From a virus (Duplodnaviria; Caudoviricetes), in the IMG/VR virus record IMGVR_UViG_3300031949_000069, positions 1-46,208 of that record: DNA of 46,208 nucleotides; one strand, written 5' to 3'. This document shows, piece after piece, positions 1 through 46,208 of this stretch (within the stretch, counting starts at the first letter, position 1; each line of letters starts with the position of its first letter). The translations under genes were made by a program, and so were the position numbers. The notes under the pieces are model-generated. The model ran no database searches. It saw nothing but the letters and a program-made list of their open reading frames with translations, and had not been told where the DNA came from.

Positions 1-254
1 CGGATACTGACAAGACTCGATAGCTCTATATCGTTTCACAAGACCTCCGTGGTTCGGGTGCCGGGGAACCGAGGCTCCTCGGCGCATCGCAGGCCGCTGT
101 CGCCGCTATGCATGATATCTATCCTCGTGCCGCGGAACGCCTTTACGTCCGCGATGATGTCGATAGTGTCCCGTAACCTATCGAATTTGGCCCCGGCCTC
201 GAGTAGTAGTTCCTGGGCCGGAATGGTTACTCTTCCATAGAATTTCCTCTTCAT
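1..254. repeat. Terminal direct repeat, copy 1 (circular overlap with 45955-46208)
   Basis: 1-254 equals 45955-46208 except G127 vs A46081. Confidence 0.97.
36..254 (-). CDS. Hypothetical protein (72 aa), first gene of a small leftward operon; duplicate of 45990-46208
   Basis: ATG at 254 preceded by GAGGAG; lies downstream of a sigma70-like promoter. Confidence 0.65.
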   Translation of the reverse strand: MKRKFYGRVTIPAQELLLEAGAKFDRLRDTIDIIADVKAFRGTRIDIMHSGDSGLRCAEEPRFPGTRTTEVL

Positions 255-327
255 TTCTGCTCCTCGCGCCACTCGGGGGCGCATCCTCCCGGGGTCCGCC
301 GGGCCGGTCATCCTCAATCACGATATC

Positions 328-356
328 AGAATATATCAGATGATAGCGCGTGTCAA
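328..356 (-). promoter_or_regulatory. sigma70-like promoter TTGACA-17nt-TATTCT driving the leftward small-gene operon
   Basis: Minus strand TTGACA (356-351), 17-nt spacer, TATTCT (333-328). Confidence 0.7.
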
Positions 357-370
357 GAGAAATCGGAAGG

Positions 371-1264
371 TCATTCAAGATCCGCAATGGCGTCGAAGAA
401 GTCGCTCTCGTGGACCAGCATTACCGGGGATCCGCGCCTCCGGAGATCCATGGCCCGCTCCACCTTCCGGCCATAGCAGCAGTATGCATAGCAGGGATTT
501 CCGGCCGTGCAGACCACCAGGTAATCCACGTCCCGACGCAATGAGTCTGTGACGTTGCCGCCGAGTGCTACCACCTTGGCAAAAAGCTCGACTCTCGGAA
601 ACTTCTCGCATTCCCCCGTAAAACAGAAGAGATGCCCCTCAAACGAAATTTCAGGGCAGACAGCGCAGATGCCCGTGATATTGGGAGTGTTCGGGCGCGG
701 GCGCTCGCGATCGAGAATGAAACTGCCCGGGGAAACAAATTCGGAAATGAACCTGGAAAACAGGGCATGCTCCTCCGCGTCGATCTTCCCGTCCTGGAGG
801 ATCTTGGTGATGAGACTCGTTATTTCGTCGTAGGGCCAGCATCGCGCTAGCTGAGAATTGAACTCCTGCCATTTGGCTAGACCTCTCAATTCAGGCACGG
901 TGATTATTCCGTCCGCGATGATGCCCGCCAGGAGGCCCTGCAGACGCTGCATGTCGGCCGTGACACCATCATAATATTCACTCGACAGCAGGTTTTTGCA
1001 CATCCAACACAAGTCCTCTTTCTGGTTTAAACTGACGATGCCAGCGGCCATGACCTCCTGAAGAAGTGGTGTTATTTCGTTGTAGGGGTGCAGTCCCTGG
1101 AGTTCGCGGTTTTCTTCGAGCCATTCTCTGATTGATTCCTTTTCTCGCGTGCTGACGATCTGGTCCAGAGTGACACCCTCCAGGATTCCGAGGAGAGTGT
1201 TGATTGATTTGTCCAACCGGGATTTGCCGGTGAGATGGTAATAGGGCAATTTCTCTGGATCCAT
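371..1264 (-). CDS. BRCT-domain protein with a duplicated N-terminal helical repeat (lysogenic cargo)
   Basis: C-terminal FCFTG...GG...VDYLVV...YGRKVERAMDLR...VHESDF is typical of BRCT. LLGILEGVTLD and LQGLLAGIIADG are repeated units. GGAGG precedes ATG 1264. Confidence 0.8.
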   Translation of the reverse strand: MDPEKLPYYHLTGKSRLDKSINTLLGILEGVTLDQIVSTREKESIREWLEENRELQGLHPYNEITPLLQEVMAAGIVSLNQKEDLCWMCKNLLSSEYYDGVTADMQRLQGLLAGIIADGIITVPELRGLAKWQEFNSQLARCWPYDEITSLITKILQDGKIDAEEHALFSRFISEFVSPGSFILDRERPRPNTPNITGICAVCPEISFEGHLFCFTGECEKFPRVELFAKVVALGGNVTDSLRRDVDYLVVCTAGNPCYAYCCYGRKVERAMDLRRRGSPVMLVHESDFFDAIADLE

Positions 1265-1281
1265 AGTTCCATTCCTCCGAA

Positions 1282-1746
1282 CTACCAAACGTTCTTTGTC
1301 ACGGTCGGAGACCAATTACCCCATCCATACTCGTTCCCGAGCCGCGCCCTGAAGTACAGGGTTTTCCCCGATTCACTCGTGTTCCATATCCACGTGCCAT
1401 TCATTGGATAAACCGGGAAGGTTTTGGAGTAAATGGTATGCGCGAAACCGCCATCAGCGGCAATTTCCATCTGCGTGACCACGGGCCGGGTATTGATTGC
1501 CCACAACGGGTAAATGTCCACGCCCCAAGTGATTCTTACAACATAGAATGACATCCGCTCTGCGATCACGATCAATACGACATCTCCGGGAACGCCGCTA
1601 TTTGTGGCATCCTCATCCGAGCGGGATGGCGGTGGGATGGGACTCCGAGCCAGGCCAACCCCCGCCGGCGCGGGCCTGCGTTGACCAAAAGTCGGCGCGA
1701 CCCCCAAAAGACACAGCGCGGCCAAAATCCAAATAGCCTTCTTCAT
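1282..1746 (-). CDS. Secreted protein: signal peptide plus a single FN3-like domain paralogous to a tail-tip domain
   Basis: MKKAIWILAALCLLGVAPTFG signal peptide, GAGGAG RBS, C-terminal YFRARLGNEYGWGNWS; aligns by eye with the product of 39100-39393. Confidence 0.8.
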   Translation of the reverse strand: MKKAIWILAALCLLGVAPTFGQRRPAPAGVGLARSPIPPPSRSDEDATNSGVPGDVVLIVIAERMSFYVVRITWGVDIYPLWAINTRPVVTQMEIAADGGFAHTIYSKTFPVYPMNGTWIWNTSESGKTLYFRARLGNEYGWGNWSPTVTKNVW

Positions 1747-1757
1747 ATGTATCTCCT

Positions 1758-2118
1758 CTAAACCGGAGCCCCGGGAAGCTCCGGACTTGCCGGTGATTCG
1801 CGCCCACAGAAGCGGCAAATGATCGCCTCCGCAAAGATCATCTCGGCACAGAAGGGGCATTTCCGAAGTTGGCGCCCCGACGATGACGTTTTGCCTGGGG
1901 CGTCGAATGCGAGGATTCGCGTATCTGCCCCGGAATGCGCTTTGGGGCTGGCTCCCCTAAAAGCGCGATGATGATGATTCCAATCGGACCGAGGAAAAAT
2001 CCAAGCCAGAATCCCAGAGCCGCTCGATTTTTGCATTCGCCGATGTAGGCCGAGACCAAAGCGAAAGGGATAGTGAGCACAACGAGCAAAAAAGAGTATC
2101 ACCAGGGTCCGATTCCAT
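1758..2118 (-). pseudogene. Two-TM membrane protein with C-terminal zinc ribbon, broken by two apparent 1-nt deletions (or sequencing errors)
   Basis: GGAGGG-atcc-ATG at 2118. The TM segment (IPFALVSAYIG...FWLGFFLGPIGIIIIALL) and CPFCAE...CRFCG are in different frames. Confidence 0.6.
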
Positions 2119-2262
2119 GGATCCCTCCGCGCATTCGATCGATTTATTCCGGCCAATCTACGCGCAATTTCCGCGCGAATTCCCTCAGCCAGATATCGAT
2201 CAGCTTACAATAAATATTCACCACTTTCGCCGCCTGAGGGGGATTGGTGACAGGCGGCCGGG

Positions 2263-2652
2263 TCACCCCGCCTTTTTGCGCCGGACCTTCGATTGTCTCT
2301 CCTTTTCTGCGTCGGCGCGCATTAGCGTCAGCATGTGACCATGCAAAAACTCAATGTTTATCGCAATGCCCTCGGCCGCAGGGGAGTTTGAATCAAGAAT
2401 TTCCTGTAGTTTGCAATGCAAAGCCTGATCGCGCTCCGATAGTTGCTTTGGCGCTCCGATGAAAACAAAATCCTCCATGGTTGTGTCGCATGCGGATAAC
2501 AAGGCGCAGAGCGTGGCAAAAGTTGGGCTCGCCCTCCCGTTTTCAATGGAACTGATGGCTTGGCGGCTCACTTTGCTTTGGGCGGCGAGCGAGTCCTGTG
2601 TATGTAGCGCTTTAAGGCGGAAGAATGTCAGCCGCTTTCCGATGTCCATCAT
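2263..2652 (-). CDS. XRE-family HTH repressor (CI-like; no S24 autopeptidase domain)
   Basis: IGKRL...TQDSLAAQSKVSRQAISSIENGRASP HTH; divergent from a cro-like gene. Confidence 0.88.
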   Translation of the reverse strand: MMDIGKRLTFFRLKALHTQDSLAAQSKVSRQAISSIENGRASPTFATLCALLSACDTTMEDFVFIGAPKQLSERDQALHCKLQEILDSNSPAAEGIAINIEFLHGHMLTLMRADAEKERQSKVRRKKAG

Positions 2653-2690
2653 CTCCAGTTTCGCATTGTTGCAAAAAATATGAAAAATTA

Positions 2691-2721
2691 TCTTGACAAG
2701 AATTCTTTACCCACGTAAAGT
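2691..2721 (+). promoter_or_regulatory. PR-like promoter TTGACA-17nt-TAAAGT overlapped by palindromic operator candidates
   Basis: TTGACA 2693-2698 and TAAAGT 2716-2721; palindromes TCTTG-A-CAAGA (2691-2701) and CTTTAC-ccac-GTAAAG (2705-2720). Confidence 0.75.
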
Positions 2722-2730
2722 CACGTTCCA

Positions 2731-2952
2731 ATGAGATACAACGCACAGCTCATCAAGAGGCAGAGATTCGCACGCGGCTGGTCGCAGGTGCGGTTGGCGA
2801 AGCGCTGTAAACTGAATCAGGGCACAATCAGCAACGTAGAGCGCGGCAGGACCAACAATCCCGAAACGCTCCGCAAGATTGCGGCCGCTCTCGGGCTCGA
2901 TCTCGAGTCCCTGCTAATTGAGGACCTGCAACGCGAGCACTGCGCGTATTAA
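2731..2952 (+). CDS. Cro-like HTH regulator
   Basis: RGWSQVRLAKRCKLNQGTISNVERG HTH, 73 aa, divergent from the repressor. Confidence 0.88.
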   Translation: MRYNAQLIKRQRFARGWSQVRLAKRCKLNQGTISNVERGRTNNPETLRKIAAALGLDLESLLIEDLQREHCAY

Positions 2953-2961
2953 GGAGCCTCC

Positions 2962-3339
2962 ATGCCCAACGTCAGGCAGTTTCGACACCGGCAGCCGCAA
3001 TCAGATCCAGACCCAGGCCTGCCGCCTACCGCGGCGCGCCCGGAGACCTTCACGATCTCCTTCCGAGCCCCCATCTCCCTTGACCGTGGCGTCCGCCGCC
3101 GCTCCAGAGATCTCGGAATGACACGCGGCAGCTACCTGCGGAGTATCGTCCAGGGTGACCTAAACGCCAAGGATTGTAGACATTGCGGACACGAACCCCT
3201 GCTTGCCTCGATCGCTAGTCTCTACCGGGAAGCAAAGCGGGCCCTGGCCGACGGCCGGATCAGCATCCCGGAGCGCGAGACCATGACGGATCTGATCGCC
3301 GAGCAGCTCCACCTGGTGCGATCGCGGAGGGCGGCATGA
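2962..3339 (+). CDS. Putative regulator in the CII position (possible ribbon-helix-helix)
   Basis: AAGGAG RBS; TISFR...LGMTRGSYLRSIV; C-terminal ALADGRI. Confidence 0.55.
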   Translation: MPNVRQFRHRQPQSDPDPGLPPTAARPETFTISFRAPISLDRGVRRRSRDLGMTRGSYLRSIVQGDLNAKDCRHCGHEPLLASIASLYREAKRALADGRISIPERETMTDLIAEQLHLVRSRRAA

Positions 3340-11485: not shown

Positions 11486-11708
11486 CCTTGTACTTGTGCC
11501 GATGGTAAAAGAGATTGGAGAGATGCAGCCGGGCGCGATGTTCGAATGCGAGGCGGCAAAATATCTGAAGCTTTCGGTCAACGAGCTTCGGAAATTTGTC
11601 CGGATCGGGCTGATCCCAGCCAGGCATCACCCGGAGCGCAGGCGCAGGATCTACCTGAGGTCAGACCTCGATCACTATCTGGAGTCGTTGCCCAGGGAGG
11701 CTGAATGA
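11478..11708 (+). CDS. xis: Excisionase-like winged-HTH protein
   Basis: EAAKYLKLSVNELRKFVRIGLIPA...RIYLRSDLDHYL, directly upstream of the integrase. Confidence 0.75.
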   Translation: MSSLVLVPMVKEIGEMQPGAMFECEAAKYLKLSVNELRKFVRIGLIPARHHPERRRRIYLRSDLDHYLESLPREAE

Positions 11709-12757
11709 CGGTCCACGAGCGCAACGGCAGGATCATCGTCGACACGATTTGGCCCGACGGCAAGCGCACGCGCCGCCAGGCGATCGATGTGAAGCAGGCC
11801 AGGGAACTCGATCTCAGGATCCGCGCGAGCCGCATCGACGGGACCTGGCGCGAGCTCAGGCGGAAACTCAACGCCGAGCACGCCGAGGGCATGAAGCTCA
11901 GGGAAGCCGCAGATCTCTATCTCGATCAGTACGTGCGCTCGAAAAACCGCGACCGCAAAAGCAAGAAGAGCCGCCTGGCCATCCTGGTGCGGGAGCTTGG
12001 CAATCTTCTGATCTCGGAAATCGGTCGCGCCGAGGCCTCGCGCTATTCCGCCAGGCGCCTGAAGGCCGGCATCTCTGCCCGGACGGTCAATCGCGACCTG
12101 GCGGTCCTGCGCCATCTGCTGGAGTGGTGCCGGCGCCAGCAGATCCTGGAAGCAAATCCTCTGCACGACTGGGAGCGCCTGGTCGAGCAGCCCTTCGAGG
12201 GGCGGAGACCGACCGGCGAAATCGTCGACCAGGTCATAGCCCGGGTCAGGGAGACGGTGCGTCCGCTATTCATCTTCCTGCGCGAGACGGGCTGCCGGCG
12301 CGAGGAGGGTCTTGCGCTCAAGCATTCCCAGGTCGATCTGCGCAACGCGGTGGTGCATCTGCACCGCACCAAGAGCGGCAAGCCGCGCAGCGTGCCCCTG
12401 ACCGCCGCAGCGATCGCCGCCATCCGCCAGATGCCGCGCACGTCGCGGACCGAGTACGTGTTTTATCATCCCGCCACGCTCACCAGGTGGAGCGAGGCCA
12501 AGGATCCGTGGGAGTCGGCGCGTAAGGCAGCAGGCCATCCCTGGCTCCGGATCCACGATTTGAGGCATGCCTATGCGATCCGCCTGGTCGAGGCCGGCGT
12601 GCCAATGGAAGTTGTGTCTGAAATGCTCGGTCATGCGACGATCGACTTCACCAAGAAAACCTATGCCAAATATGCGCCGACGTGGGCCGGCCGCGTTGTT
12701 TTGGCGGCACTGGAGGGAAGACAGGTTGAGGTACAAGAGAAAGTGCGTCGACGGTAA
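11705..12757 (+). CDS. int: Tyrosine integrase
   Basis: ETGCRREE (R), TKSGK (K), HDLRH, LGH, and catalytic Y in KTYAK. Confidence 0.95.
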   Translation: MTVHERNGRIIVDTIWPDGKRTRRQAIDVKQARELDLRIRASRIDGTWRELRRKLNAEHAEGMKLREAADLYLDQYVRSKNRDRKSKKSRLAILVRELGNLLISEIGRAEASRYSARRLKAGISARTVNRDLAVLRHLLEWCRRQQILEANPLHDWERLVEQPFEGRRPTGEIVDQVIARVRETVRPLFIFLRETGCRREEGLALKHSQVDLRNAVVHLHRTKSGKPRSVPLTAAAIAAIRQMPRTSRTEYVFYHPATLTRWSEAKDPWESARKAAGHPWLRIHDLRHAYAIRLVEAGVPMEVVSEMLGHATIDFTKKTYAKYAPTWAGRVVLAALEGRQVEVQEKVRRR

Positions 12758-13154
12758 AAGCAGATACGTCCATCGGTTACTGATGGAAAATATTTTGGGC
12801 AGAAAACTCAAACGAACCGAAGTGGTTCACCACAAAAATAAAGATCGCCTAGACAATCGAGTGGATAACCTGGAGATCCTTTCACTTTCCAGGCATCAAT
12901 CCATGCACAGGGTTGGTAAGCCGCCAGGGACGGCGGGAAAACCGCTTAGTCAATCAGCAAAAGCTCTCTTGTCTTTGGCCCGCAGGGGCTCTCGGAATGG
13001 CATGGCAAAACTCACCGAATGCAACGTTCAAAACATTCGGGAAAGAGTTCGCGCCGGAGAGCAACGCTCTGTACTGGTTCGAGAATTCAAGGTCACCCGT
13101 CAATTGATCTATCAGATTGTAAAGGGAAAATGTTGGCGACACCTGCCGGAGTAG
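12726..13154 (+). CDS. HNH homing endonuclease with C-terminal DNA-binding modules
   Basis: YVHRLLME...VHHKNKDRLDNRVDNL; GSRNGMAKLTE plus HTH. Probable TTG start at 12726 after GGAGGG; more AT-rich than flanks. Confidence 0.88.
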   Translation: MRYKRKCVDGKSRYVHRLLMENILGRKLKRTEVVHHKNKDRLDNRVDNLEILSLSRHQSMHRVGKPPGTAGKPLSQSAKALLSLARRGSRNGMAKLTECNVQNIRERVRAGEQRSVLVREFKVTRQLIYQIVKGKCWRHLPE

Positions 13155-22251: not shown

Positions 22252-22638
22252 ATGGCTGCAACCGGATCAGGATACCTCGTACCGCGGCCGCCCCTTGTGG
22301 CGCCCGATGCAAGCGTCACAGCCAAGGCGGCGACCGGCAATCTGGCGATTGCCGACTACGCGAAAAACCTCACCAACACCGGCGCCGCCGGGACAATCGT
22401 CCTGACGCTGCTTGCGGCCGCATCGGCGGCGGGGATGGCATTTCGCATCCAGTGCACGGCCGCTCAGATCGTTCGGCTGCTTCCACAAACCGGGGAGAAG
22501 ATCTATCTCGGCGGAAGCGGCGTGGCATCGAAGTATCTAAACATCGCTGCCGTGATCGGCAACTACGTCGACGTGTACTGCGACGGGGAGAAGTATCTGG
22601 TCACGAGCTATAGCGGCGTAGTGACCAAGGAAGCGTAG
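22252..22638 (+). CDS. Putative head decoration/head-fibre protein, paralog 1
   Basis: Follows the capsid gene; TNTGAAGTIVLTL...G..F motif; paralog of the next gene. Confidence 0.7.
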   Translation: MAATGSGYLVPRPPLVAPDASVTAKAATGNLAIADYAKNLTNTGAAGTIVLTLLAAASAAGMAFRIQCTAAQIVRLLPQTGEKIYLGGSGVASKYLNIAAVIGNYVDVYCDGEKYLVTSYSGVVTKEA

Positions 22639-22695: not shown

Positions 22696-23079
22696 ATGGC
22701 TGCAACCGGATCAGGATATCTGGTACCCGAGCCGCCTCTCGTGGCGCCGGATGCCGCTGTCGCCGCCAAGGACGCAACCGCGGACCTGGCGATCGGCGAT
22801 TACGGGAAAAACATCACCAACACCGGAGCCGGGGATACGATCGTTCTCACCCTGCTCGCAGCTGCCCTTGCGGCCGGTATGGCGTTTCGAGTGCAGCTGA
22901 CGGCCGCTTTCGTCGTCACCCTGACGCCGGCGAGCGGGGAGAAGATCTATCTCGGCGGAAGCGGAGTCGTCGACGAATCGCTCAGCATCGCCGGCGTGAT
23001 CGGCAATTACGTCGACATCTACTGCGATGGCGAGAAGCACATGGTCATCGATTACAGCGGCGTTCTCACCAAGGCATAA
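22696..23079 (+). CDS. Putative head decoration/head-fibre protein, paralog 2
   Basis: Same RBS and start (AAGGAGATCAACAAATGGCTGCAACCGGATCAGGATA); colinear homology to paralog 1. Confidence 0.7.
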   Translation: MAATGSGYLVPEPPLVAPDAAVAAKDATADLAIGDYGKNITNTGAGDTIVLTLLAAALAAGMAFRVQLTAAFVVTLTPASGEKIYLGGSGVVDESLSIAGVIGNYVDIYCDGEKHMVIDYSGVLTKA

Positions 23080-30492: not shown

Positions 30493-31851
30493 ATGAAAAG
30501 ATATGTCCTGCTGTGCCTGATGATCCTCTGTTCTCTCGTCGCATTCGGCACGCCGCGCACCGCGCTCTACGTGTCGGCGACCGGAAGCGACACAACCGGA
30601 GATGGGTCGGCCTGCGCACCGTGGGCCACCATTCAGCGCGCCGCGGCCGCCGTCAAAGCCGGTGAGGTGGTATTCGTCGGGCCGGGCCAGTACTCCGGCG
30701 CGATCACCACGAGCGCAAGCGGGACAGCCTGCAACCCGATCGTGTTCCAAGCCGCGCCCGGGGTCACGATCGCGGGCCGTTGGCGCCTGGTCGGCGAGTA
30801 CGTCACCATCACCGGCTTTGCCATGCAGGGGCCGCTTGCGGGCTCTTTGAATTTCTTTGATCTTTCCGGTGCCAAGCATTGCACGGTCAGCTACAACACC
30901 GTCCAGGGCGGGGACTACAACGACCGAGGCGTCTACCTGGGTGGGTCTGCAAGTTCCTACAATGCCATCGAGCACAACGTGATCCGGAACATTGATTACG
31001 TTCCTATCTGGATCGGCGGCGTCGGCAACACCATCGAACGAAACACCGTGGACAACGTGTCCACGGATGCGATTCTGGTCTGGGGCCATGGTCACGTGAT
31101 CCGGGGCAACGACGTGGGGCGTGTGACATACGCCCCGAATCACGCCGATTACATGCAGACCTTCTCGAATGCCGGCGACACCAACGAGTCCTATGACATC
31201 CTGGTCGAGAGAAATTTCTTTCATGACTCGCCCTGGACGACCGAACCGGCGAATGTGCAGATCGGGCAGCTTTCACCGCAGGGAAACCCGAACATCAGGG
31301 ATTGGATGTTTCGAAATAACATCTTCGCCCGGATCGACGGGCCCCTGAACATCAACATTCCCGGCACCAAGGTTTTGAACAACCTTTTCTATCGCGTGTC
31401 GACGCGTATCGGCGGGAATGCGGTCAATTTTGGGGACAGCGTGACAAACGGGCCGGCGCACAATCCGACAGTGAAAAATAACCTCTTCATCGGATGTGGA
31501 CGGCTCATGGACAAGTACGGCTCCTACTCGATGGAGGCTGGCGTTCAGGGCGATGATTGCAGCCACAACCTGGTTGCAGACGGCCCGCCCGGCTACGGCC
31601 CGAAGAAGCTTACCCTGTCCCGCGACCTGGCCGGCGCGTCCCTGAATGGCATCAATCCGCTGTTTGTCGACGAGCTCGGCGGGGACTTCCGACTGTTGCC
31701 GGAATCGCCCGTAGTCTCGGCCGGCGTCAACCTCAGCCTGCTGTTCAAAGACGATTTCGATGGATCGCCCCGCCCCGCGACGGGCCCGTGGTCCATTGGG
31801 CCATTCGCTGCGCCGCGTGTGCTTGCCGGAATGATCGCGGCCAGGAGGTAG
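30493..31851 (+). CDS. Signal-peptide-bearing right-handed beta-helix (pectin lyase-like) protein
   Basis: MKRYVLLCLMILCSLVAFG; YVSATGSD..GDGS...PWATIQRAA; Asn-ladder repeats; NPLFVD..GDFRL...DDFDGSPRP..WSIGPF. Confidence 0.85.
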   Translation: MKRYVLLCLMILCSLVAFGTPRTALYVSATGSDTTGDGSACAPWATIQRAAAAVKAGEVVFVGPGQYSGAITTSASGTACNPIVFQAAPGVTIAGRWRLVGEYVTITGFAMQGPLAGSLNFFDLSGAKHCTVSYNTVQGGDYNDRGVYLGGSASSYNAIEHNVIRNIDYVPIWIGGVGNTIERNTVDNVSTDAILVWGHGHVIRGNDVGRVTYAPNHADYMQTFSNAGDTNESYDILVERNFFHDSPWTTEPANVQIGQLSPQGNPNIRDWMFRNNIFARIDGPLNINIPGTKVLNNLFYRVSTRIGGNAVNFGDSVTNGPAHNPTVKNNLFIGCGRLMDKYGSYSMEAGVQGDDCSHNLVADGPPGYGPKKLTLSRDLAGASLNGINPLFVDELGGDFRLLPESPVVSAGVNLSLLFKDDFDGSPRPATGPWSIGPFAAPRVLAGMIAARR

Positions 31852-37200: not shown

Positions 37201-40200
37201 ATCGGGCCGACCGTCGGGAGGATGTACGGCCTCGGCAGTCCGATCGCGTCTCCCGGGACGGACTGGTTTGAGATCGTCGTCACAAATATCTCAGGCCTCA
37301 ACTCCGCATCGCTATCTCCGGATCCGCGGTACCACCACGCGCACGTTTTCTATTACTACGACGGCTCAGCCGAGAATGTGCGCGACGGCGGCAAGACGTC
37401 GGGCCCGGAAGATACCGAGCTGATATTCGAGCCCGAGGCCCCGGAAAGCGCCGACGCCAACATCACGGTTGTTGTGCGTTCCTCGAACGAGGATGAAAGC
37501 GATCTCTTCCCGTTCGACGACAGCCCGGCTGCCGGCGCCGCGCTCACAAAGGACAGCGGCAACCCAAGCGGCGCCGCGAACCTCGATATTTTGACGACGA
37601 TCGATGATGCGGATATCCCGCCCGGCATGGTGGTGTTCGAGTGCGACCCGGAGCTTGTGAACGCGTCGAGCATATACCGCTTCGATGTCTGGATGTCCAC
37701 GGCCCTGCCGGCATACGGACCCTACCAGGCAGAGCGCGACGCGCATGCCGACGAGATTATCGAGGGTCCCTACGCGGTCACGATCCTGCCGGGCAACAGG
37801 CGCGTATCTGTGACCAGGTCCGCCTCGGCCGACGTCATCAACGGCGTTCTACTCATTTTTACCAACGACGCCTCGCCCGATTCAGATCTAGAAGGCATGG
37901 TCGTTCAGGCGCAAGGCACAAACTATCTGGATGTCGACAAGGCCTTCGCCAAAGCCGGCGCCTACACCGGTTATGTGATCACCCCGAATTGGACACTGCT
38001 TCCATTCTATCGATCATTCCGCATCGATGAGATCGGAGGGGTAGCGGCCGAGAAATGGCGGACGCCTCCGGCGCCCTGTCCGATCGGCACCTTTTATGCG
38101 ACTGCCGCCGCCCGGTCCAAATATGGAGTCGGCACCAGGCTGACGGCGGGGCCCTTCACCTTCCAGGCCGGCGGCGAGGCTCCGGACGATGTTGTCCCAG
38201 AGGACCTGCTTGAGGAGGTCGTCTACGCCAAGGACGGCGCGGCTCTGTCGGTAGTGACCGTTGAGGTTACCTACCCGGCAACGAGCATTCCCGCGGGCGT
38301 CGACGTGTATTGGAAGAGGCGCGATGATACGCTCGGCTCGCTGCATCTCGGAACCAAACTGCGCGAATCGGCCGCGGACGAGGATCCGAATCTTTCGGGA
38401 GTACAGAACATCGGGCTTCTCCCGCCGCTTCCATTTGCGGCCGATTCCACGATCGACGTTTTCTATCACGCCCTGAATTCCTCGGGCTACGGGAAGGCGA
38501 TCGAGTGGCTTGAGACCGAGACCGTCAAGACCCTGGCGACCGAAGGCGGGATCGACGCGGATCCGGACACGGTGCTGGTGGAGTTTTCGAGCATCACCGA
38601 TCTCGCCGCCGGGGACATTGTCAAGATCGACACTGAGTATCTGGTGTTGGTTTCGGTCGAGAATGTCGCCGGGCATTGGATCTGGACGGTGCTGCGCGCG
38701 CAGCATGGCACGGCGATCGCGTCCCACGCTTTCGGGGCCAATTGCACCAAGATCGTATGTTCCATCCCCTACAACTCGAAGCTGCTCGATGGGGAGACGG
38801 ACACGCTCCCGCAGGTTCCCGATGTCGAGGCGCTCTCCGGCGAAAAGATCATCAAGCTGCGCTGGGCACACTACGCCACACCGCAGGATCGGCGCGTCAA
38901 GCACTACAACATCTACCGCGGCGACACGGGCAATTACGATTTCGCGCAACTCGTGGCCCAGGTCGACACGACGTTTTATGTCGACATGTTTGCCACGGCG
39001 TCCGATACCAGGTACTACTATTGGGTCCGGGCCGTCAGCAACAGCGGCATCCTGGGCGCCAACCTCACCAGCGCGGTCGCGGCCTACCAGACCGGCGACG
39101 AGGGCGTGCCCGATGATCTCACAATCGTGGTGATCGCCGAGCGGCAACTGAACGGCGCGACGCAGTACACCTGGGGTGTCGACTTCGTCGGCGTTCAGAA
39201 TGCCGCCGGCATCGAGCATGTTCTGGTTCAGATCGCGCGCGATCCCTCGTTTGCCGATCCGATCTTCGACCAGACCTATGGAGCGTTCCCGGTCAGCGGT
39301 ACCTGGAGCACAACCGAGCTCGGCACCTTCTTCTTCCGGGCAAAGGCCGAAAACGCTTTCGGCTGGTCCGACTGGTCGCCGACCGTGGCGAAAACTCCGG
39401 GCGATACGTTCATCGTGCCCGATACGAGCTATCCCGGGACGGTGCAGAACCTGACGCTTGAGGCAGCAGACGCCGATCCGACGGCAAGCGGCCTTGAGCT
39501 TGTCGTCACCTGGAATCCGCCGGCAGATGGCCTGAACACGCTGTTCCATTACGGCGTGATGATCCACAACAACGTCACCTTCCCGGCCAACACAATTCAC
39601 AAGGCGGCCGCCGGAGGCCTGCAGTTTCATCCGGGCTCGGACGAATTTACGGATCCGAACTTTGACTTCACCGGCCAGGAGGGGCGCTACATTTTCGTTT
39701 ACCGCGGCAGCTACGATGCTGACGACCACAACCTGATCATGGGCGATCGGATCAAGGAAGTGGTGCCCGGTACCGACGGCCATACCGTCACCCTGTACAC
39801 GACGTCCCGGTACGATCATTCGGACGGAACCTACCAATATGCCATCGTGACGCCAGCCTGGGTGCAGTGCATCCGGCCTCTGGTGATCTCCCCGAAATCG
39901 CTGGGGGGCCCGATCAACATGCAGGAATCGAGCTTCCGCGAAATCGTGAGCGGACTCGGGCCCGGCACCTATTACGTAAAGGTGCGCGGGGTGAACGCGC
40001 ACGGTTTCGGCGACTATGCGACCGCCGGCCCGGCCACCATTGCGGGTATTTCGGCTGATGATCTCGACGAGGACGTCGCCGACGCTATTGATGCGGCTGG
40101 AGGGCTGATCGATACCGCCCTCCCGAGTGTGCTCCAGAATGTGGCCGTGACGGGAGCCGATGGGAGATTTCGCGCGACCTGGGAAGCGCCCGCGACCGGA

Positions 40201-45804: not shown

Positions 45805-45993
45805 TCATGTGTATATCACGATCCAGTCCTCACCGATGAGCAGCTCGACATGGCCCACGTATCCGTGTCGCGGAATGTCGGCAGCATCACAAGCCGCTCG
45901 GATGTCGGGCCCATCGTAGAGGATGATCCCCGCGCGATCCAGGCATCTGCAGTCCGGATACTGACAAGACTCGATAGCTCTATATCGTTTCAC
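45805..45993 (-). CDS. Small hypothetical protein
   Basis: GTG start with GGAGG and a GTGA overlap with the upstream stop. Confidence 0.55.
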   Translation of the reverse strand: MKRYRAIESCQYPDCRCLDRAGIILYDGPDIRAACDAADIPRHGYVGHVELLIGEDWIVIYT

Positions 45994-46208
45994 AAGACCT
46001 CCGTGGTTCGGGTGCCGGGGAACCGAGGCTCCTCGGCGCATCGCAGGCCGCTGTCGCCGCTATGCATGATATCTATCCTCATGCCGCGGAACGCCTTTAC
46101 GTCCGCGATGATGTCGATAGTGTCCCGTAACCTATCGAATTTGGCCCCGGCCTCGAGTAGTAGTTCCTGGGCCGGAATGGTTACTCTTCCATAGAATTTC
46201 CTCTTCAT
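45955..46208. repeat. Terminal direct repeat, copy 2
   Basis: Matches 1-254 with one mismatch. Confidence 0.97.

Follow-up and report, generated by a model that had tools for sequence, protein, structure and literature searches.

We analyzed a 46,208-base stretch of DNA (the window) that is a nearly complete phage genome, 97% by the estimate of its record, and encodes a terminase, portal, capsid, long tail operon, tyrosine integrase and divergent cI/cro pair. The integrase (11705–12757, plus strand) together with the cI/cro pair marks the phage as temperate. The integrase gene lies mid-genome among early genes and is overlapped at its 3′ end by an HNH endonuclease ORF (12567–13154, plus strand), and the capsid gene is followed by a tandem gene pair (22252–22638 and 22696–23079, plus strand) encoding 127–128-amino-acid proteins that are 75% identical and are probably head decoration proteins. 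The window ends (1–254 and 45955–46208) overlap directly over 254 bases and differ only at position 127, where a second assembly has the other base; the genome is probably circular, and the tail gene would then be followed by the repressor cassette at a distance of about 6 kb. The N-terminal 851 amino acids of the tail protein have prophage matches in 6 of 51 genomes from the order of the Acidobacteriota genome G001 and in 1 of 401 genomes sampled from the phylum, and the terminase shares 75–80% identity with that of the closest of those prophages; on these two comparisons the host probably belongs to the order of G001. Acidobacteriota cells are Gram-negative. The soil metagenome run that covers the window best may be its source; three other soil runs contain a few short pieces identical to the window, too few for strain comparison.

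A repressor operon with a small FN3 gene

The cI-like repressor gene (2263–2652, minus strand; HTH_3, E 4e-11, with PHROG repressor matches) heads a leftward run in the order cI, membrane/zinc-ribbon gene, FN3 gene and BRCT gene, and lies opposite a divergent cro-like gene (2731–2952, plus strand) recognized by a profile match and accompanied by a sigma-70-like site at 2693–2721. Frame analysis revealed that the membrane/zinc-ribbon gene (1758–2118, minus strand) is split over three frames, with an ATG at 2118 that has a Shine-Dalgarno sequence, a membrane part at 2089–1838 and a zinc ribbon ending at 1758. A second assembly of the source run shows no indel at this point, parts of the gene are matched exactly by short sequences from another study, and an intact 124-amino-acid counterpart exists in genome G449 (L096:6910–7281). 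The BRCT-domain gene (371–1264, minus strand; phrog_3989, E 1e-71) encodes a homolog of Orf2 of Vibrio phage K139 (25.9% over 92%, E 2e-15) with two repeat-like halves at its N-terminus. The FN3 gene sits closely between its neighbors, with the upstream stop codon 11 bp before it and the BRCT start 17 bp after it, and the GC content of the cassette is 0.53–0.56 versus 0.62. These data agree with the original prediction, which placed the gene in the repressor block, and position in the cI operon of an integrase-encoding phage suggests a region expressed during lysogeny. Positions 300–3000 of the window had no RNA data set listed for them, an absence that carries no information on expression. 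A second sigma-70-like site (328–356, minus strand) appears to drive a leftward run of small genes after the BRCT gene (36–254, minus strand, continuing at 45805–46041), which have a higher GC content.

The FN3 gene (1282–1746, minus strand), defined by its ORF and by BLASTP paralogy, starts with an ATG just downstream of the Shine-Dalgarno sequence AGAGGAGA and encodes a 154-amino-acid protein, P0001, whose translation confirms the protein sequence originally quoted. Sequence and hydropathy predict a Sec signal peptide at residues 1–21 (1684–1746, minus strand), with an MKK n-region, an 11-residue hydropathy of up to 2.9 at residues 7–17 and a likely cleavage site at T-F-G/Q after residue 21. 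P0001 contains no lipobox, as its only cysteine (C12) is preceded by A-A-L, a context that does not match the lipobox pattern. The signal-like N-terminus predicts that P0001 is exported and located in the envelope. A proline-rich linker (residues 22–48, 6 prolines in 27; 1603–1683, minus strand) leads into a 106-amino-acid FN3 domain (residues 49–154; 1285–1602, minus strand) with a net charge of +1 and a pI of 8.25. An outer-membrane sorting signal at the C-terminus, suggested by the final tryptophan, was considered and dropped on account of the alternating pattern of such signals, which the sequence does not fit.

An AlphaFold2 model of the P0001 domain built from a five-row alignment has seven strands and a pLDDT of 82.7. 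Structure searches with this model returned FN3 domains as top matches (best Z 11.0, rmsd 2.4, 95 residues aligned), Foldseek also supports an FN3 fold, and the FNIII region of lambda J (residues 614–712) scored Z 9.7, not above generic FN3 rows. The Pfam fn3 profile (PF00041) gave no match at E 0.1 for P0001 or P0002, and weak matches were obtained to the minor-tail family phrog_6977. According to the model, the domain belongs to a divergent FN3 subfamily that is recognized by fold. PADLOC profiles (2023 library) matched P0001 in 0 families at E 0.1, and no NCBIfam profile matched.

Paralogy with a distal unit of the phage tail

The 2368-amino-acid tail protein of the phage (34246–41352, plus strand) is divided by sequence comparisons into a conserved N-terminal part of ~850 amino acids, which we infer to be the hub, and a variable distal part. 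BLASTP aligned P0001 residues 49–151 with tail residues 1618–1716 at 44 of 104 identities and 61% positives (77 bits, E 9e-21). This was the sole significant HSP, as the next reached 18.9 bits (E 0.59) and 200 shuffles of the domain scored at best 23.5 bits against the whole tail, and the pair is the only small-gene/large-gene paralogy among the ORFs of the window. The hand alignment behind the original prediction, roughly 40 identities over about 100 residues and far more than with other FN3 units of the tail, is thus borne out on both counts. Its term "tail-tip FN3 domain" stands in so far as the match is to an FN3 unit within this phage's tail; the unit lies ~650 residues before the C-terminus, not at the C-terminal tip, so the wording was loose. 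The matched unit (39097–39393, plus strand; net charge −8, pI 4.16) forms the first half of a two-domain module whose second half (39403–40050, plus strand), defined from alignments of tail copies, is an FN3-like unit with an inserted segment that comes after the shared unit in every aligned tail copy. Tail residues 1522–1805, modeled without an alignment, reached a pLDDT of only 32. Elsewhere in the late tail operon, a gene at 30493–31851 (plus strand) encodes a 452-amino-acid beta-helix protein (DUF1565, weakly PelN-like) that its signal-like N-terminus predicts to be a second exported tail-like product.

We searched 1.84 billion representative proteins with phmmer and obtained 19 matches including the query itself. 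Single-domain scores were 65.9 bits for the phage's own tail, 28.6–34.3 bits for three other tail-like proteins (P0007, P0009 and P0015) and at most 25.2 bits for generic FN3 repeats, and the match is therefore better than a generic FN3 resemblance, a point on which the original prediction had staked itself. The subfamily is rare, and all other full-length copies found are in phage tail proteins, namely P0007 (= L048), L049, P0009, P0015 and a prophage of G001, and a prophage of G431 carries a more distant tail copy of the module. In P0007, P0009 and P0015 an insert-bearing FN3-like domain comes after the unit, matching the arrangement in the phage's own tail; the module also occurs in the G001 prophage and two metagenome loci, one of which is P0007 itself. 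The module is common to otherwise unrelated tail proteins (L048:592–4242, L049:5545–8997, L034:8486–12208 and L102:14778–17297), some of which sit in short-tail-like gene layouts, and it is duplicated in P0007. From these sequence comparisons the two-domain unit appears to be a mobile distal tail module, its recurrence and duplication may be likened to those of host-facing modules, and it is a candidate marker of host range among phages of this Acidobacteriota group. The unit had no match in 16 viral loci sharing the tail N-terminus, several of which end before the distal part, or in 25 viral records searched in full, which are mostly fragments. Nine loci retrieved with P0009 matched another part of that protein, and P0011, a repeat-like spurious match, was excluded from the trees.

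We looked for a second stand-alone copy and detected none among 59 and 336 candidates or the 19 representative matches, none in the viral contigs searched, none in 401 genomes from the phylum and 137 from the class, and none in the 25 viral records, mostly fragments. Searching short proteins with either the sequence or a profile retrieved P0001 alone, and G001, a single 6.9-Mb chromosome that carries the module, contains no stand-alone copy. We further screened small ORFs with hydrophobic N-termini against the large ORFs of the same element in the window and 13 related elements, many of which are partial, read in 20-kb pieces or inclusive of host DNA. This screen recovered the known window pair at 66.2 bits and detected an exported paralog of an element's own large protein in 0 of 13 related elements at 20 bits; among these elements the module is present only in G001 and, distantly, G431. 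Co-varying pairs of decoy and tail, for which the original prediction had suggested checking related phages, were accordingly seen in none of the 13, most of them partial.

Origin and age of the P0001 domain

Among eight domains compared, the P0001 domain and its own tail unit are reciprocal best matches at 77.0 bits, with the next score at 51.6 bits on the P0001 side and 70.9 bits on the tail side. A 19-row tree places the two as sisters (support 94/88) nested within a nine-row clade in which the eight other rows are tail copies (support 100/99), and the sister relationship recurs with support 91/96 in an eight-row tree that omits the near-identical L049 rows and ten generic FN3 outgroups. 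Six residues are found only in the P0001 domain and its own tail unit, compared with one to three in every other tail group. A strand-B tryptophan among the six is also present in all ten generic outgroups; the other five are absent from the outgroups, and any other tail group has at most two such residues. Approximately unbiased (AU) tests rejected two of five distinct alternatives, grouping with P0007b (p 0.043) and with P0009 (p 0.036), and did not reject sisterhood with the G001 copy (p 0.16–0.17) or the G431 copy (p 0.11). Overall column identity between the P0001 domain and its own tail unit is 39%, within the 34–53% range between unrelated tail copies. From this sequence evidence we favor, short of proof, a duplication from the phage's own tail lineage.

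The reverse direction, in which a secreted FN3 domain of a host or mobile element seeded the tail module, or a third-party origin in which both copies came from another phage, appears quite unlikely. Either would mean that the co-occurrence of both copies says little about function. The AU test leaves room for such histories, as a position of the P0001 domain outside all tail copies was not rejected (p 0.24; 0.238), the strand-B tryptophan shared with the tail is the one that recurs in every generic outgroup, and third-position GC content (GC3) of the P0001 gene is 0.65, cassette-like, versus 0.79 for the tail. Against them stand the five residues exclusive to the pair, the rejected groupings with P0007b and P0009, and the Acidobacteriota genomes sampled (401 and 137), in which no host protein has a full-length match.

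If the duplication from the tail lineage is accepted, it appears to be old, since the same codon is kept at only 16 of 35 identical residues and GC3 has shifted to the level of the cassette. The branch length of the P0001 copy is 1.08 versus 0.56. A recent duplication at the DNA level was considered and rejected, as alignable DNA is limited to two short stretches (31/42 and 44/68).

A proposed role in superinfection exclusion

We compared the two surfaces in a multiple alignment, in which the P0001 domain and its own tail unit share 39 identities. Of these, 23 are common to at least three of five other tail copies and thus represent the family core, and 11 recur in no more than one other tail copy. 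The P0001 domain has lost 9 of the 13 acidic residues of the tail unit and has a pI of 8.25 against 4.16 for that unit; the tip of the first hairpin reads MSFYV in place of QLNGA in the tail, and the next loop gains YPLW. By this comparison the scaffold appears conserved and the surface changed. The simple decoy originally envisaged, a faithful surface mimic of the virion domain, does not fit a copy with reversed charge whose identities are mostly family core, and we consider it unlikely that P0001 is a true decoy that retains a binding surface inherited from the tail unit.

The companion claim, that the FN3 unit is thereby marked as host-interacting, likewise finds no support. In the accounts of T5 and lambda in PMC10038345 and PMC11101478, FNIII units are mechanical: the FNIII strings of T5 bear a negative patch and regroup, bending the fiber after a separate protein binds FhuA, a regrouping required to trigger ejection, and in lambda the C-terminal domain of J binds the receptor and FNIII units reposition. 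A tail FN3 unit accordingly need not touch the host, although the distal and mobile character of the present one, away from the hub, leaves host contact possible. The same mechanical roles permit a different use of the charge reversal, which sets P0001 (pI 8.25) apart from all eight aligned tail copies (pI 4.2–6.4): P0001 might attach to the acidic FN3 string when a tail arrives and prevent the rearrangement by which the tail tube is opened, or neutralize particles after lysis. The negative patch and regrouping of the T5 strings, the repositioning of the lambda units and, as described in PMC11364771, the action of Tai proteins against the central tail fiber are all compatible with such jamming. 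It is nonetheless very unlikely, because a periplasmic protein would not be expected to meet fiber domains outside the outer membrane, P0001 would risk neutralizing the phage's own progeny, and the shared unit is distal, not a hub-proximal FNIII lever.

We tentatively propose, as the likeliest of the roles considered but with somewhat less than even confidence, that P0001 is a periplasmic superinfection-exclusion protein consisting of a signal peptide and a diverged duplicate of a tail FN3 unit, and that it binds an envelope entry factor of the host. The proposal builds on three observations, the paralogy, the fold model and the position in the repressor operon. An ancestral phage would have duplicated the tail unit and fused the copy to a signal peptide and proline-rich linker; the lysogen would produce P0001 from the cI operon, and the protein would be exported by Sec and cleaved. 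P0001 may then engage the entry factor on its periplasmic side, in the way that Llp engages FhuA, through an affinity inherited from the tail unit and later retuned by the new aromatic loops and the loss of acidic residues, so that adsorption or DNA entry of phages using the bound factor would fail. P0001 released at lysis could additionally mask receptors on debris. Given the predicted periplasmic location, P0001 is not expected simply to occupy a receptor's outer face while the cell is alive.

The tight operon, the Orf2 neighbor, the Glo protein of phage K139 and defense-type cargo in related cassettes support an exclusion role. The lysogenic operon of K139 has the order cI-orf2-glo-int, and Glo is annotated as "periplasmic protein; involved in phage exclusion" (GenBank AF125163.2). 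Like P0001, Glo is small (137 amino acids), bears a signal and is encoded in a cI-led lysogenic operon beside the Orf2/BRCT homolog; the gene order differs, with glo after orf2 and the P0001 gene before the Orf2 homolog, the Glo annotation makes no mention of a virion-domain copy, and the two proteins gave no alignment at E 100. In related cassettes, G430 carries an HTH repressor, a membrane-anchored protein, an HsdR_N protein (L087:18583–19416, plus strand) and a zinc-ribbon protein, and G449 carries the intact membrane/zinc-ribbon gene and a pentapeptide-TIR protein (L096:4694–5761, minus strand), with an upstream ORF that has no HTH match; the pentapeptide-TIR and HsdR_N genes are candidate defense genes. 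In phage vB_PaeS-D14L, the one other record inspected among 18 matches, a SmpA/OmlA-domain gene adjoins the BRCT gene. The viral contigs searched with the BRCT protein gave no match.

The same cassettes bear on a further explanation, in which P0001 is envelope cargo for lysogenic conversion that reuses the FN3 scaffold in adhesion or envelope remodeling, or is a decaying passenger. In G466, a case that weighs against the exclusion role, the repressor is followed by a broken BRCT gene without an exported gene in the interval, the BRCT homolog (L108/L109) being ~50% identical and interrupted by a TAG stop, and in the window the frameshift in the membrane/zinc-ribbon gene upstream of P0001 indicates that the cassette may be decaying. 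A cargo or passenger is also what one might read from P0001 being a singleton in the collections searched, from identities that lie mostly in the fold core (23/39) and from the second signal-bearing tail-like gene at 30493–31851, since export need not mean defense. We nevertheless judge it somewhat unlikely, as an intact frame, Shine-Dalgarno sequence and fold maintained despite near-saturated codons point to long selection on the protein, and the gene occupies an operon position next to an Orf2 homolog.

Several known systems resemble the proposed exclusion protein in part. As described in PMC9586334, Llp of T5 is a periplasmic protein that blocks an outer-face receptor, and exclusion proteins also prevent adsorption to debris; Llp, with which Cor-type lipoproteins are grouped as small exported exclusion proteins, thereby serves as a model for receptor block from the periplasmic side. 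Llp differs as a lipoprotein that acts on the FhuA plug and is not a copy of pb5 in that account, whereas P0001 lacks a lipobox and is a tail-domain paralog. P22 SieA, HK97 gp15 and TP-J34 Ltp are likewise envelope proteins made by prophages that keep related phages from entering, but they are membrane proteins directed against ejection or tape-measure proteins and are not described in PMC10883804 as virion paralogs. The Tai tail-assembly inhibitors are also prophage-encoded and aimed at the central tail fiber, but they act on progeny tail assembly, and the terms "signal peptide" and "fibronectin" are absent from the main text of that report (PMC11364771). In the literature considered, no known tailed-phage exclusion protein is described as copied from the virion protein that it opposes.

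We searched literature titles and abstracts, with few subscription journals covered, and found no description of an exported tail-domain duplicate. The original statement that no described exclusion system built from a phage's own tail domain is known holds, within that search, for exported duplicates. Exclusion by a phage's own virion entry protein does have a precedent in microviruses, as reported in a review. That case, as given in the review, concerns a single-stranded DNA phage in which the virion gene itself is used, whereas P0001 is a separate exported duplicate of one domain. The g3p protein of filamentous phage binds the F pilus and TolA (PMC8879233). It resembles the P0001 proposal in that an entry partner is occupied by a protein that the phage itself uses for adsorption and that is present in the infected cell's envelope, and differs in that a single gene covers both functions and g3p is periplasmic by nature, with no duplication. 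The g3p protein has an exclusion role in filamentous phage, and endogenous retroviruses provide an analogy to virion-domain decoys in the form of secreted envelope fragments.

A broader principle, that tailed temperate phages export a duplicated host-contacting tail domain whose FN3 copy competes with the virion for an envelope partner, is in our view unlikely on present evidence, and the value of the finding is limited by its being a single case in an uncultured phage. P0001 is small and soluble and would be cheap to test given a host. If true, the decoy reading would reveal the entry factor of a group of uncultured Acidobacteriota phages and would establish virion-domain decoys as a class. 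A proven exported tail-domain duplicate would also bear on whether distal tail FN3 units bind the host or act as spacers, and would demonstrate a simple route by which exclusion proteins originate.
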